This document shows positions 29,097 through 37,807 of a stretch of DNA of 64,000 bases, one piece after another. This DNA is from an uncultured Candidatus Saccharibacteria bacterium. GTDB taxonomy: Bacteria; Patescibacteriota; Minisyncoccia; Phycocordibacterales; UBA12088. Both the position numbers and the translations under genes were made by a program. The notes beneath the pieces were generated by a model, which was given only the letters and a program-made list of their open reading frames with translations, made no database searches and was not told the DNA's origin. The stretch's first letter is position 1, and the number at the start of each line of letters is the position of its first letter. The stretch covers positions 41,530 to 105,529 of the forward strand of contig CAYPBQ010000003.1 in the NCBI GenBank assembly GCA_964409035.1, in the 5' to 3' direction.

Positions 29097-29299
29097 TCAC
29101 ACTTCATACCCACCGCATAATCAGCCTATTGAGCTTGCGCAGTGGTATACGTCGAAACCTTCGACTACTCCCTTACAAGGACTTCATGCAAGGGAGTAAT
29201 CTTTAAACTTTGCTCGCTTGGCAGGACGATTTTCGAACGATTGATTGGGCTAAAGAATACCCATTTCCAAACATTGCCTTGAGAGAGATAGAAGAACTT

Positions 29300-30094
29300 T
29301 TACTTGTTTGATTTTTTAATCGAGGTTTCTTTTATTCTCTTTTCAGCCATTTTTATATATTTATCCTCCTTTTCAATACCAATCCAATCTCGCCCAAGAC
29401 TTTTTGCCACTGAAGCAGTAGTACCGCTTCCCAAAAATGGGTCAAGAATTACATCATTAGGATTTGAAGAAGCGATTATAGTCCTCCTTACTAACTCTTC
29501 AGGTTTCTGTGTGGGGTGGGAAGCACGTCCATCTTTTCCTCTGATCCTTTCCTTACCTTGAACTAAAGGTAGTGACCATACGTCACGCATTTGCTTCAGA
29601 CTGCCATCAAGTTGCTTTTCTGGGTTAATTTTTTTGAGTTCGTCATAGTTGAATACCCACTTTTTACCTTTAACAGCCCAGACGACAAACTCTGTAGAGT
29701 GAGTAAATACTCTTCGGGTCATATTTGGCATGGCGTTAGTTTTTTGCCAAGTAATTATGTTGAGTATATTGAAATTGAGATTCTTCAGGCTCATTATTAT
29801 CTCACCAATGTTGTGATATGTACCACAAATATAAATTGAGCCGTTATTCTTTAATACACGGTGACTAGCTTTAATCCATTCTTGATTAAAAATAAGGAAG
29901 TCAGATGGGGTCATTTGATCCCAAGCTTCATTTACCATAAACCAATCTCCACCAGTTTTGTTTCCTTTCCATTTCAGACCATTGCCAGAAAGGTTGTATG
30001 GAGGATCGGCAAAAATCATATCGACACTTTCCTTGTCGATTTTCGTGTTCATTATTGCGGTGCAATCACCTTTATAAATTAAATTCTTTTTCAT
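29300..30094 (-). CDS. DNA methyltransferase, beta-class (N4-cytosine or N6-adenine), R-M system M1 subunit
   Basis: Motif IV 'IFADPPYN' near N-terminus and motif I 'VILDPFLGSGTTA' near C-terminus (beta-class order). Confidence 0.85.
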   Translation of the reverse strand: MKKNLIYKGDCTAIMNTKIDKESVDMIFADPPYNLSGNGLKWKGNKTGGDWFMVNEAWDQMTPSDFLIFNQEWIKASHRVLKNNGSIYICGTYHNIGEIIMSLKNLNFNILNIITWQKTNAMPNMTRRVFTHSTEFVVWAVKGKKWVFNYDELKKINPEKQLDGSLKQMRDVWSLPLVQGKERIRGKDGRASHPTQKPEELVRRTIIASSNPNDVILDPFLGSGTTASVAKSLGRDWIGIEKEDKYIKMAEKRIKETSIKKSNK

Positions 30095-30097
30095 AAA

Positions 30098-36183: not shown

Positions 36184-36196
36184 TATAAATATAACT

Positions 36197-37747
36197 ATGA
36201 AATCTGTAATTTATTGTAGAGTTTCATCAAAAGAACAAGAAGAAACAGGATACTCACTTCCTGCTCAAGAAAAACTACTTACCGACTATGCAAACAGAAA
36301 AAACATTGAAGTGGCTAAAGTTTTCTCTGTGGCCGAATCAGCTAGTGGAGCAAAACAAAGAAAGATATTCGGTGAAATGATGGAGTACATTGAGAAGCAC
36401 GACATACCGGTGCTTCTTTGTGAGAAAGTAGATCGTCTAACTAGAAACCTCAAGGAGGCCGTTACCGCTAATGATTGGATTGAAGTAGACCCAAAAAGGC
36501 AGATTCATTTCGTAAAACAGAACCTTGTCATTCACTGGGGCTCAAAATCAGATGAGAAGTTTCGATGGGATATTGAAATCGTACTAGCAAAAAAGTTCAT
36601 CTCAAACCTTTCTGAAGAGGTAAAGAAAGGTCAAGAACAGAAGATTCGATCAGGTTGGTTGCCAACAAAACCACCCATTGGATATAAAACCATTGGAGAA
36701 AAAGGTCATAAGATTCACGTCATTGATCCTGAAAAGGCTCCATTCGTAAAAAAGCTTTTTGAGTATTATGCTTCAGGAAATTATTCAATGAAGAATGTCA
36801 TTGAAAAACTTTATGTTGAGGGATTCCGTACTCATGCCGGCGGTAAGCCAGTGAAAAGTAAGATTGAAGCTATGTTGAAAGACCCATTCTACTACGGAGC
36901 TATTCGTTGGAATGACGTGTTGTATACGACAGGCAAACATGAGCCTCTAATATCAAAAGAATTATTCGATAAAGTTCAAGATGTCCGCACTGGAAAGAAA
37001 GCTCTGAAATATACTCGACACATGTTTCAGTTTCGAAAGATGTTTACTTGTGCAGAGTGCAAAGGAACTATCACGGCCGAGATACAGAAAGGTACTGTTT
37101 ATTATCACTGCACACACTACAAAGGTTGCACACAGAAAAGATACACACCTGAAGAAGAAATGGAGCAAAAGCTTTTTGGGGTATTCAAGTTCTTTGAGAA
37201 CATTACTCCACGAGAAGCCGAACTTATAAAGGCAAAAATCAAGGCGAATCACGCTCAAGAGATTGAGTATAAGGAAAGCACTCTGAAGTCTCTCAACGAT
37301 CGCTATAATCAGCTACAGAAGCGATTAGACAACCTCTACAACGATCGACTTGATGAATCTATCACAATGGATTTCTGGCAAAAGAAACAGAAGGACATCA
37401 CTGATGAGCAGGCCGGTATACAAGAGCAAATCAAAAAACTAAAAAGTGAGGAAGCGAAGTACTTTGAGATTTGGTTGAACATTCTTGATCTGTCTCGAAG
37501 AGCTAGAGAAATCTATGAGAAAAGAACTCCAGAACAAAGGAGAATACTTTTGAGCCATATTTTTTCGAACTTGGTACTTTCTGACGAAACAGTGTTGTAT
37601 ACACTCAAGGCTCCGGTACAAAAGCTTGCAGAAAGAGTTCAACAACGTATTGACCTAGAAAAGACTTTCGAACTGAAGAAAAAGGTTGCTACTAAAAGAC
37701 AAAAAGGCACTTTCGTGCCTTCTCGTCCTGACTTGCTCCGCGGGTAG
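36197..37747 (+). CDS. Large serine recombinase (resolvase/invertase catalytic domain + recombinase domain + zinc ribbon)
   Basis: Catalytic Ser 'VIYCRVSSKEQ', 'VLLCEKVDRLTRN'; Zn ribbon 'CAECKGTITAEIQKGTVYYHCTHYKGC'; C-terminal coiled coil; last codons overlap tRNA-Asn. Confidence 0.85.
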   Translation: MKSVIYCRVSSKEQEETGYSLPAQEKLLTDYANRKNIEVAKVFSVAESASGAKQRKIFGEMMEYIEKHDIPVLLCEKVDRLTRNLKEAVTANDWIEVDPKRQIHFVKQNLVIHWGSKSDEKFRWDIEIVLAKKFISNLSEEVKKGQEQKIRSGWLPTKPPIGYKTIGEKGHKIHVIDPEKAPFVKKLFEYYASGNYSMKNVIEKLYVEGFRTHAGGKPVKSKIEAMLKDPFYYGAIRWNDVLYTTGKHEPLISKELFDKVQDVRTGKKALKYTRHMFQFRKMFTCAECKGTITAEIQKGTVYYHCTHYKGCTQKRYTPEEEMEQKLFGVFKFFENITPREAELIKAKIKANHAQEIEYKESTLKSLNDRYNQLQKRLDNLYNDRLDESITMDFWQKKQKDITDEQAGIQEQIKKLKSEEAKYFEIWLNILDLSRRAREIYEKRTPEQRRILLSHIFSNLVLSDETVLYTLKAPVQKLAERVQQRIDLEKTFELKKKVATKRQKGTFVPSRPDLLRG

Positions 37748-37807
37748 GATTCGAACCTACGACCAAGCGATTAACAGTCGCCCGCTCTACCACTGAGCTA
37801 CCGCGGA
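37736..37807 (-). tRNA. tRNA-Asn (anticodon GUU), no encoded CCA
   Basis: Reverse complement 'TCCGCGGTAGCTCAGTGGTAGAGCGGGCGACTGTTAATCGCTTGGTCGTAGGTTCGAATCCTACCCGCGGAG' folds as cloverleaf; anticodon loop CUGUUAA; T-loop TTCGAAT. Confidence 0.9.

Follow-up and report, generated by a model that had tools for sequence, protein, structure and literature searches.

An 8.5-kb serine-recombinase island at tRNA-Asn in a Patescibacteria genome, with a proposed attP inside the integrase gene

We conclude with high confidence that positions 29212-37738 of the window (the whole 64,000-nucleotide stretch of DNA analysed here) are an integrated 8.5-kb mobile element, a member of a Patescibacteria-wide family of 5-10-kb islands with one large serine recombinase (LSR). 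Included in this conclusion is a proposed mechanism in which attP lies within the LSR gene and is split, together with that gene, on integration. The preliminary description of this DNA had also read the region as an integrated element, a reading to be given up if related genomes carried the same genes in the same place at native GC content, or if neither a repeat of the tRNA 3' end nor an alternative att core could be found. Neither turned out to be the case, and the reading is supported. The features on which the analysis rests are as follows.

29169..29197, no strand: host hairpin CTCCCTT...AAGGGAG, between the membrane-protein gene and attL (sequence inspection)
29212..29215, no strand: attL core GCTC at the left junction, the sole sequence common to the junctions, in frame as TTG CTC
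29216..29311, + strand: detached LSR tail, AWQDDFRTIDWAKEYPFPNIALREIEELLLV followed by a stop (translation; homologous tails elsewhere)
29300..30094, - strand: N6/N4 DNA methyltransferase, second methylase of the restriction-modification (R-M) system (Pfam N6_N4_Mtase, E 2.1e-60; PADLOC MTase_II, E 2.7e-86)
30098..31948, - strand: AlwI-family type IIS-like or nicking endonuclease (Pfam RE_AlwI, E 5.5e-89)
31924..33588, - strand: fusion of LexA (HTH and S24 peptidase) to a D12/Dam-class methyltransferase (Pfam LexA_DNA_bind, Peptidase_S24, MethyltransfD12)
33590..33626, no strand: perfect 17+17-nt palindrome (inverted repeat I20, 100% complementary)
33690..34076, + strand: 128-aa HTH protein, terminase-small-subunit (TerS)-like (PHROG 4102 'terminase small subunit', E 2.9e-20)
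34292..35373, + strand: orf134 and orf209, without Pfam or PHROG matches
35497..35709, + strand: orf70, small acidic protein with the motif SFFDLLAKFDFED (tblastn, alignment)
35959..36183, + strand: orf74, without database matches
36197..37747, + strand: LSR in its integrated, tail-less form, 516 aa (Pfam domains)
37690..37730, - strand: terminator-like hairpin and U-run for the tRNA-Asn transcript, antisense within the linker codons of the recombinase (fold)
37735..37738, no strand: attR core GCTC at the right junction, tRNA nucleotides 71-74 read antisense (junction comparison)
37735..37807, - strand: tRNA-Asn(GTT), the host target (ARAGORN)

Ends of the island and its tRNA target

The LSR reading frame ends TTG CTC CGC GGG TAG, and its final 13 nt therefore overlap the 3' end of tRNA-Asn. 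Residues 1-514 are encoded by the element, and the final two residues (RG) and the stop codon are supplied by the tRNA. ARAGORN and the ORF coordinates agree with the earlier observation that the recombinase stops inside tRNA-Asn, with the tRNA 3' end facing the island. The left end, previously described as not sharply defined, proved to be sharp at the level of the base: the island runs from the GCTC at 29212-29215 (attL) to the GCTC at 37735-37738 (attR) and measures 8,523 bp. GCTC is the only sequence common to both junctions in 15 of 15 attL/attR pairs, from elements of 5.4-10.2 kb, and each end of the island has it in frame as TTG CTC. The exact att direct repeat that the preliminary description proposed to look for exists only as this alternative core. 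A core as short as GCTC is what a serine recombinase should leave, and it explains why the window contains no direct repeat of the tRNA 3' end. The weak tRNA-3'-like match noted earlier at 29228-29244 could be confirmed, yet it does not derive from a tRNA: it represents the P' arm of attL and also part of the recombinase-tail codons. Two further candidates for tRNA-end repeats, the weak repeat D11 (34096 versus 37806) and a match at 34601, were judged to be chance.

Base composition sets the island apart from its flanks, as had been claimed from inspection. The GC content of the island (29216-37738) is 37.4% versus 42.8% for the remaining window. Among 154 non-overlapping segments of the same length, the mean is 42.8% (SD 0.73, minimum 41.65%), so that the island lies ~7 SD lower. 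For the internal terminators mentioned previously, a crude pattern scan only was made, which gave 17 terminator-like sites versus 7.1 expected from shuffles.

The sequences following the core differ between the two partner sites in a regular way. In the P' half-site, GGCAGGA occupies +5 to +11 and TTCGAAC +17 to +23; in the B' half-site, which consists of the acceptor and T arm of the tRNA, GGTAGGA occupies +5 to +11 and TTCGAAC +12 to +18. The distal TTCGAAC-type motif starts at +17 in P' and at +12 in B' in all pairs examined. This 5-bp shift is the same as in the model for A118-type integrase sites, where the distance from the centre to the distal (ZD) motif is 5 bp shorter in attB than in attP (PMC3783163). 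The attP reconstructed from the window contains a perfect 8-bp inverted repeat with 14-bp spacing, centred between T and C of the core; the P half-site TCGTCCTG at 37723-37730 is the inverted partner of CAGGACGA at 29222-29229. The predicted attP junction joins CTCGTCCTGACTTGCTC on the left to GCTTGGCAGGACGATTTTCGAAC on the right, and the predicted attB junction joins AATCTTTAAACTTTGCTC to CGCGGGTAGGATTCGAACC. In a family-wide scan of 15 elements, the att arms show dyad symmetry that hardly exceeds background, and the exact crossover dinucleotide is therefore unresolved; we infer that it is TC or CT inside GCTC.

The hairpin at 29169..29197 belongs to the sequence that originally lay downstream of tRNA-Asn (B arm side). 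A hairpin immediately left of the attL core is found in 15 related loci as well, usually followed by a T-run, and at an empty site (L098) a comparable hairpin lies directly 3' of the tRNA. On the evidence of folding and covariation, the antisense of the LSR 3' end encodes a covarying, putative replacement terminator for the tRNA. Its hairpin folds with -22.7 kcal/mol (z -5.98) and overlaps the P half-site. Of 47 loci, 33 have a terminator-like site after the tRNA, compared with 35 of 235 control windows. Over 20 sequences, pairing in the 7-bp stem amounts to 85.7% and there are 33 double-change cells, a result that 0 of 500 shuffles attain; slid controls give 26-56%, and G-U pairs fall on the tRNA strand.

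Cargo genes

R-M genes, a TerS-like HTH gene and small orphan ORFs had been recognised in the region before, and Pfam, PADLOC and PHROG agree with these assignments. The R-M genes lie within the island boundaries and are therefore cargo. With RE_AlwI and two methylases (one D12, one N6_N4) that share its operon orientation, the gene set fits a type IIS R-M system of the AlwI/N.BstNBI group. The best PADLOC match of the endonuclease is 'Type II nicking endonuclease' over its full length (E 4.5e-151), and residues 218-551 of the LexA-methylase match PADLOC MTase_II (E 7.6e-115). The palindrome stops 1 nt before the LexA-methylase start codon and is a candidate operator, for which there are no functional data. 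LexA control of the R-M system is plausible, again without regulation data. The cargo of related elements comprises other anti-phage or defence systems, as judged by defence-model matches. Among the three options given in the preliminary description (satellite, ICE remnant or defence island), a defence island fits best. An ICE remnant is unsupported because no conjugation genes were found: Pfam and PHROGs detected no relaxase, coupling protein or type IV secretion domain in any island ORF.

The satellite option kept its TerS-like gene and gained no other basis from the analysis of the island. In its full form, this option holds that the element is packaged after excision by a helper phage through its own TerS-like protein, and we regard it as rather unlikely. 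The TerS-like protein recurs in two related elements (L015 and L034), the elements are small (5-10 kb), relatives carry Rep-like genes, and more distant LSR relatives (L092 and L093) reside in inovirus-like elements. However, the TerS-like gene is present in only 3 of 16 bounded elements, the element has no known helper, and HTH proteins of this type also serve as regulators. Neither the window nor the closer elements yielded capsid, portal, large terminase, tail or lysis genes in Pfam and PHROG searches, and no primase gene was found in the closer elements. A scan of 2.9 million IMG/VR contigs returned only 3 matches, all distant. That the TerS-like protein hints at transfer via phage packaging remains an inference.

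Apart from the recombinase, orf70 is the sole gene that recurs across elements: tblastn placed matches upstream of the recombinase in 17 loci, and the circular element L090 encodes a homologue (E 7e-15). We infer that orf70 is a candidate accessory or directionality factor. A homologue of orf209 occurs only in the L011 element, and no similarity was found between orf209 and a 231-aa ORF of L090. At the position of orf74, relatives have a winged-HTH gene that matches HTH_36/DnaD_N and the PHROG 'replication initiation O-like'. Pfam and PHROG scans gave no match for orf134, orf209, orf70, orf74 or any ORF of the circular L090.

The split LSR gene and its detached tail

The recombinase has the features that define the LSR type, namely a catalytic domain with its serine, a recombinase domain, and a zinc ribbon with an embedded coiled coil. 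Pfam Resolvase covers residues 4-153 (E 2.3e-18) and Pfam Recombinase is matched at E 2e-16, while Zn_ribbon_recom scores 23.7 bits, slightly below the 25.3-bit cut-off. R8 and S10 are invariant in an alignment of 30 homologues, as are C285, C288, C305, and C311 in the family alignment. Distant PDB matches (E 1e-6 to 1e-4) are the catalytic domain of TP901-1 (3bvp) and the C-terminal domain of A118 integrase (4kis), and an AF2 model of the homologue P0088 has long coiled-coil helices at 340-419.

Insertion removes the conserved tail of the LSR because the LSR gene spans the attachment site. The detached tail comprises ~31 codons (AWQDDFRTIDW..EYPFP..), of which the first ~30 nt are the P' half-site, and a TAA at 29204-29206 separates it from any start codon. 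In 15 other loci, this tail is likewise found 5-10 kb upstream of the recombinase, and 18 of 20 metagenome matches show it detached. Tail and recombinase are joined in P0088, P0028, P0101, P0246, P0250, and L116; a protein search with the reconstructed C-terminus, limited by its word index, returned only 2 matches. Some chromosomal LSRs with an intact tail have a second LSR 8-10 kb further on, and these may be tandem-array junctions rather than free attP.

We propose the following mechanism. In the free circle, the LSR gene would run across attP, with the P arm read as codons of the disordered linker, the crossover placed inside the Leu codon CTC of the GCTC core, and the P' arm opening the conserved ~31-aa helical tail. 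The full-length enzyme would recombine attP with an attB made up of the final tRNA-Asn nucleotides (nt 71-74 as the core, the acceptor and T arm as B') and the tRNA trailer. The tRNA stays intact on integration; its native terminator would be moved to the far end of the island, and the antisense terminator in the LSR linker would substitute for it. The integrated LSR lacks its tail and ends in residues read from the tRNA (RG and a stop in this case), and the cargo is, in this element, a three-gene type IIS-like R-M system. That the full-length form integrates is inferred, as is a bias of direction or expression by the tail swap.

Across loci, pN/pS has a value of 0.03 over DDFRTIDW and of 0.32 over the 16 codons that follow (pS 0.67-0.83). 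By this codon-level measure, the detached tails are under purifying selection, for which the rejoined form is the only possible route. The AF2 tail of a full-length homologue forms helices after a disordered linker at a pLDDT of 50-67, and because of this low confidence no contacts or docking of the tail have been shown.

An unlikely alternative is a tail without any separate function, in which case the ORF would simply read through attP and the peptide would be conserved only because the DNA site is constrained. The P' half-site does coincide with the first 8 codons of the tail, the AF2 helices are of low confidence only, and integrated enzymes tolerate arbitrary tRNA-derived endings. On the other hand, synonymous sites in DDFRTIDW are nearly saturated (pS 0.67, with CGA/AGA swaps at Arg) at the low pN/pS given above, conservation extends at least 16 codons past any plausible half-site (EYPFP..L.EI..LL), and the motif is retained in homologues of 40% identity. 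If the tail does have a function, the placement of attP inside the integrase ORF might serve as a sensor of the integration state, whereby the tailed enzyme made from the circle favours attP x attB through its tethered helical tail or is stabilised by it, and the tail-less enzyme, the sole form available to the integrated element, differs in directionality or activity. We offer this sensor only as a tentative idea, possible but short of an even chance. Should it be true, the tail swap would take part or all of the role of a separate directionality factor, and the family would be a self-contained, tRNA-targeted integration system for genetically intractable Patescibacteria.

The island family and related systems

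Members of the recombinase family occur at 398 loci among species-representative genomes, most of them in Patescibacteria. Of 79 loci that were fetched, 61 have an LSR that runs convergently into, and overlaps, the 3' end of an antisense tRNA, and tRNA-Asn is the target in 49 of the 79. Past the tRNA, host synteny is conserved (DUF167, HPF, Fmt, and Def); the stretch from attL to the recombinase contains a different set of genes at each locus. The empty tRNA-Asn site for which a search in relatives had been proposed was found. First, L098 has an 89%-identical flanking membrane-protein gene, then ~75 nt and tRNA-Asn, without an island. Second, L099 keeps the order of membrane protein, tRNA-Asn and HPF-Fmt-Def-PriA without a recombinase. 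The ends of contig L090 overlap by 30 nt, which makes it a circular element of 6,949 bp; it encodes a full-length LSR and the orf70 homologue. A single circular contig could in principle derive from a tandem repeat.

The island could instead be a fixed, immobile remnant whose recombinase is kept but inactive or unused. Logan contigs of the same strain, assembled from three metagenome runs, are 100% identical to the window and include neither an excised circle nor an empty site of the island studied here. Breaks in these contigs at ~34290-34500 and 37752/37780 were rejected as element ends or excision signals: they lie away from the att core, and the contigs match the window. Pfam and PHROGs recognised no directionality factor, replication gene or transfer gene in the window's copy, in which orf74 sits where relatives have the Rep-like gene. 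Against a remnant, the LSR is full length with all family-invariant residues present, the ORF of the detached tail is unbroken, the perfect 8-bp inverted repeat of the P and P' arms persists, and selection on detached tails can act only via the rejoined form. We consider a remnant distinctly improbable. Finally, vertical inheritance of the recombinase and its neighbours as host genes (a domesticated recombinase by tRNA-Asn) can be set aside with near certainty: the recombinase is indeed 45-86% identical across many Patescibacteria lineages and always beside the same tRNA, but empty sites in close relatives already contradict this explanation, and the locus-specific gene content, the anomalous GC, the existence of a circular copy, and the use of tRNA-Gln and other tRNAs by the LSR family also speak against it.

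The integrated mobile element that we favour resembles several known systems in part. Phage LSRs (A118/LI, TP901-1, phiC31, and Bxb1) have the same domain order (Ser10 catalytic, recombinase, zinc ribbon and coiled coil) and junctions with a very short common core. Their sequence similarity to the island LSR is only distant, their targets are protein-coding whereas the target here is a tRNA 3' end, and here attP lies inside the integrase ORF of a 5-10-kb element without phage structural genes. Serine integrases have been described as targeting protein-coding genes and as needing a separate factor for reversal; the present family targets tRNA 3' ends, would keep the tRNA working via a replacement terminator, and changes its own C-terminus on integration, which provides a testable idea on directionality. 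The survey in PMC10083194 nowhere mentions tRNA targets. Our literature search on tRNA-targeting serine integrases or a Patescibacteria LSR family found nothing relevant, nor did we find a published description of this widespread island family; coverage was incomplete and a prior description is not excluded. Patescibacteria genomic islands, including ones with R-M systems, have been noted without a named mechanism (PMC12455944). Elements of this LSR family are the vehicle of at least some Patescibacteria defence-gene islands. Being compact and directed at a defined target of ~40 bp within a conserved tRNA, the LSR could also be an integration tool for organisms that are hard to manipulate.

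Archaeal tyrosine integrases of the SSV1 type have attP inside int and a tRNA as target, and integration splits int into two large parts. The island shares with them an attachment site in the integrase ORF and the partitioning of the integrase gene; the enzyme and its chemistry are unrelated, and here just the ~31-aa tail is lost and the catalytic protein is whole. In the integration-dependent immunity of mycobacteriophages BPs and Brujita, attP lies in the 3' end of the repressor gene, and a degradation tag is removed by integration with a tyrosine integrase, which changes how the repressor behaves. There, as in the island, integration alters a protein C-terminus, but the affected protein here is the serine integrase itself. 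SCCmec/CcrAB-type cargo islands use serine recombinases, usually two, to occupy the 3' end of rlmH, which stays functional. They too lack phage and conjugation genes and use the 3' end of a conserved housekeeping gene, but have neither the tRNA target nor the split recombinase ORF. tRNA-targeting islands and PICI-like satellites share with the island a tRNA 3' landing pad, variable anti-phage cargo, small size and sometimes a TerS-like gene; they differ in having tyrosine integrases and 15-50 nt tRNA direct repeats, in place of the LSR and 4-nt core found here.

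The recombinase gene at tRNA-Asn and the empty site

The following features define the element (29212-37738) and its surroundings:

28524..29096: 190-aa membrane protein, a conserved host gene flanking the island
29212-29215: GCTC core of the left junction, attL
36197..37747, plus strand: large serine recombinase (LSR), 516 aa, with Resolvase and Recombinase domains and a zinc-ribbon domain near threshold
37735-37738: GCTC core of the right junction, attR
37735..37807, minus strand: tRNA-Asn(GTT), detected by ARAGORN

The LSR ORF ends in TTG CTC CGC GGG TAG and over its final 13 nt runs antisense to the tRNA acceptor 3' strand, the discriminator and the first trailer base. 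This bears out the preliminary description, which had put the recombinase stop codon inside tRNA-Asn and had called the island AT-richer than its flanks: GC content is 37.4% across 29.2-37.7 kb versus 42.8% in the remaining window, and the lowest value among 154 equal-length windows elsewhere is 41.65%.

The island had also been read as an integrated element, with an empty tRNA-Asn site to be sought in related genomes. Such a site is present in L098 (GCA_964632085.1), where a membrane protein 89% identical to the window's is followed, after its stop codon and a hairpin, directly by ...GGCTCCGTGGGTAGGGATCGAACC..., i.e., tRNA-Asn in the same orientation without the island. A second relative, L099 (membrane protein 84% identical), keeps the gene order of the window (membrane protein ... 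tRNA-Asn ... HPF, Fmt, Def, PriA) without a recombinase; its tRNA-Asn bears a group I intron. Many LSR-bearing loci have DUF167, HPF, Fmt, and Def on the right-hand side of the tRNA. Since the neighbors are conserved and the 3' side differs, the tRNA sits in a stable host neighborhood with a variable 3' flank. We are highly confident that the window element was integrated by its LSR between the two GCTC cores.

In three further loci (L095-L097, 6565-6800), what follows the membrane-protein gene is other cargo (Fic/RhuM, rhodanese, and AAA_14) together with degenerate fragments resembling tRNA and att sequences, with no tRNA-Asn within 6 kb: the same hotspot with a different history. Elsewhere, stretches of 15-20 nt identical to the tRNA 3' end lie upstream of the LSR (L055 4791-4805, L033 1780-1796, L028 4624-4638, and L064 782-801), ~110-190 nt left of attL in the two loci where attL was mapped (L055 and L033). 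In L023 (2833-2851), the upstream exact copy matches the LSR's last codons, not the tRNA 3' end. All five may have been left behind by previous integrations into the same site.

Attachment sites and the detached recombinase tail

The tRNA end has no direct repeat in the window, as expected of a serine recombinase. What att sites do share is a shorter core: in all 15 two-ended elements, attL and attR have only GCTC in common. The left end, previously considered not sharply defined, is thereby placed at 29212-29215, and the element measures 8,523 bp (5.4-10.2 kb across the family). Because the core coincides with tRNA nucleotides 71-74, the tRNA sequence does not change on integration. The flanking motifs are:

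B' (host side, in the tRNA): GGTAGGA at +5..+11; TTCGAAC at +12..+18
P' (element side): GGCAGGA at +5..+11; TTCGAAC at +17..+23

That the distal motif lies 5 bp further out in attP is the rule proposed from the structure of an A118-type integrase bound to DNA (PMC3783163). A tRNA-like match noted earlier at 29228-29244 is real but is the P' motif; its likeness to the tRNA T arm reflects recognition of the two by one protein. In the window, a perfect inverted repeat of 8 bp, centered on T|C of the core, pairs TCGTCCTG in the P arm (37723-37730) with CAGGACGA in the P' arm (29222-29229). This sequence symmetry suggests TC as the putative crossover dinucleotide; family-wide symmetry is too weak to settle it. 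The enzyme shows each LSR-defining feature that was tested: the catalytic serine, the expected domains, a zinc ribbon with coiled coil, a short att core, and the shifted distal motif.

Translation of 29207-29311, past an in-frame TAA, reads TLLAWQDDFRTIDWAKEYPFPNIALREIEELLLV and then a stop. This tail peptide also lies 5-10 kb upstream of the LSR, on the LSR strand, in 15 other loci, and in 18 of 20 metagenome matches to the core-plus-P' pattern. The C terminus of one homologous LSR, P0088, carries it uninterrupted (...HPALLALADDFRTIDWVREYPFPTIALKEIRDLLIAT), as do P0028, P0101, P0246, P0250, and L116. Because the tail is contiguous in these proteins and detached here, attP lies inside the LSR ORF. 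Integration separates the last ~31 LSR codons, which end up at the opposite end of the element, from the remainder, which becomes fused to the tRNA. The detached tails are under purifying selection at the protein level, as judged by a pN/pS of 0.03 over DDFRTIDW and 0.32 over the next 16 codons; synonymous sites are close to saturation. Selection on the tail acts only in the whole gene, which argues for continuing excision and integration cycles in the family.

P0088 is encoded, together with a homologue of the small island ORF orf70 (35497..35709, plus strand), by L090 (Logan SRR29078207_121771; 6,949 bp), whose first and last 30 nt are identical, the circular-contig signature of a k=31 assembly. 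L090, a single case, may represent a family member in its free form; eight of its ORFs have no Pfam or PHROGs match. No excised form of the window's own element was found in three Logan assemblies, which all match the window exactly and whose contigs do not break at the att core. What the tail does, how direction is controlled, and what orf70 contributes are inferences; a regulatory role for the tail swap is conceivable, but we lean against it.

Some chromosomal LSRs with an "intact" tail are followed by a second LSR (29-33% identical). In L034, L036, and L049, an LSR at ~10001-11600 has a short "intact" tail (WDDVR type), with the second LSR 8-10 kb downstream on the same strand. Such pairs may be tandem-array junctions where two unlike elements share a site. 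To form such arrays, attP would have to recombine with attL or attR, a reaction avoided by canonical serine integrases.

tRNA targets and a replacement terminator

LSR homologues at 45-86% identity number in the thousands; 398 loci were confirmed on one-genome-per-species contigs, labeled nearly all as Patescibacteria groups. With intron-aware tRNA detection, an antisense tRNA overlaps or abuts the LSR 3' end in 61 of 79 fetched loci (49 Asn, 6 Gln, and 6 others), and 4 more stop at a contig edge. C termini of database LSRs likewise resemble translated tRNA antisense (LLRG, LLPR, ...DSNLRP...).

Many Patescibacteria relatives have a group I intron in the tRNA-Asn anticodon loop (Rfam Intron_gpI, 72 bits, in L099 at 8931-9270; also L013, L014, L020, L021, L024, L026, L046, L059, L066, L067, and L079). 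Standard tRNA scans miss these genes, and LSR ORFs integrated there run through the 3' exon into the intron, acquiring long arbitrary C termini. IMG/VR holds only three relatives, all distant. Two (L092 and L093; LSRs 41-43% identical to the window's) lie in ~12-kb elements encoding a Zot-like morphogenesis ATPase and a rolling-circle Rep, and are inovirus-like prophages using the same integrase family.

Host sequence left of attL contains a hairpin, usually with a T-run, which is the tRNA's own terminator displaced 8.5 kb by integration. Directly 3' of the tRNA, once the element is integrated, the antisense of LSR linker codons supplies a hairpin followed by a U-rich stretch (-22.7 kcal/mol, z -6.0). 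Terminator-like sites follow the tRNA in 33 of 47 loci versus 35 of 235 control windows inside the LSR gene. Pairing in the 7-bp stem reaches 85.7% across 20 sequences, with 33 double-change cells, a covariation matched by 0 of 500 shuffles (slid controls, 26-56%), and its G-U pairs are located on the tRNA strand. The matching protein segment (P0088 residues 493-512) is predicted to be disordered (pLDDT <50), so its codons are free to accommodate RNA structure.

Cargo and kind of element

The cargo listed in the preliminary description (R-M genes, a TerS-like HTH gene, and small orphan ORFs) was confirmed:

31924-33588, minus strand: LexA-Dam-class methylase fusion
N6/N4 methylase
AlwI-family endonuclease
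128-aa HTH protein with a terminase-small-subunit PHROG match (E 2.9e-20)
four small ORFs without database match

The LSR is the sole universal gene of these elements; the small acidic orf70 protein (motif SFFDLLAKFDFED) recurs. The LSR-adjacent gene in relatives often encodes a winged-HTH protein similar to replication initiators; in the window, this position holds an unrelated 74-aa ORF. Tested cargo agrees with defense-system models.

Cargo of the window element and of related loci
Window: type IIS-like R-M
L013: type III R-M
L017: PifA plus C5-methylase and endonuclease
L021, L026, L015: AriA/PtuA/AbiL-like ATPases
L011: PIN domain
L018: Schlafen domain

AlwI-type R-M homologues also occur in L028 and L064, with methylases lacking the LexA domain. 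No phage structural or conjugation genes were found in the closer elements; given this and the defense cargo, the window element is best called a small serine-integrase-borne defense island. The TerS-like gene is the sole hint at a phage-mediated transfer route.

The window LSR differs from characterized LSR systems in its tRNA target and in having attP within its own ORF, and the element in encoding a terminator. Possible analogues are SSV1-type integrases (attP in int, tRNA target), the integration-dependent immunity of mycobacteriophages, and SCCmec. A large LSR survey analyzed protein-coding targets and nowhere mentions tRNA (PMC10083194). Genomic islands, including R-M islands, have been reported in Patescibacteria without a named mechanism (PMC12455944); we found no description of this LSR family in Patescibacteria in the literature searched.

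Sequence alone suggests that control of the R-M operon may be linked to SOS or self-cleavage. The methylase fusion has a complete LexA module, with an HTH, the catalytic motifs GHSM and LKR, and an Ala-Gly cleavage site within ISAGEP. Only 1 nt separates its ATG from the end of a perfect 17+17-nt palindrome (33590-33626), leaving no space for a ribosome-binding site. The host has an S24-peptidase gene (LexA/UmuD-like; ~19338-19889, plus strand) followed by a Y-family DNA polymerase gene (~20171-21430, plus strand), so a DNA-damage response able to act on the LexA-methylase is plausibly present.

Only the N-terminal 50 residues of orf70 are conserved, so its 3' part may not code for protein but instead be an RNA or DNA element. 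Its 3' half contains an inverted repeat at 35602-35669 (28 nt, 82% complementary, 12-nt spacer).
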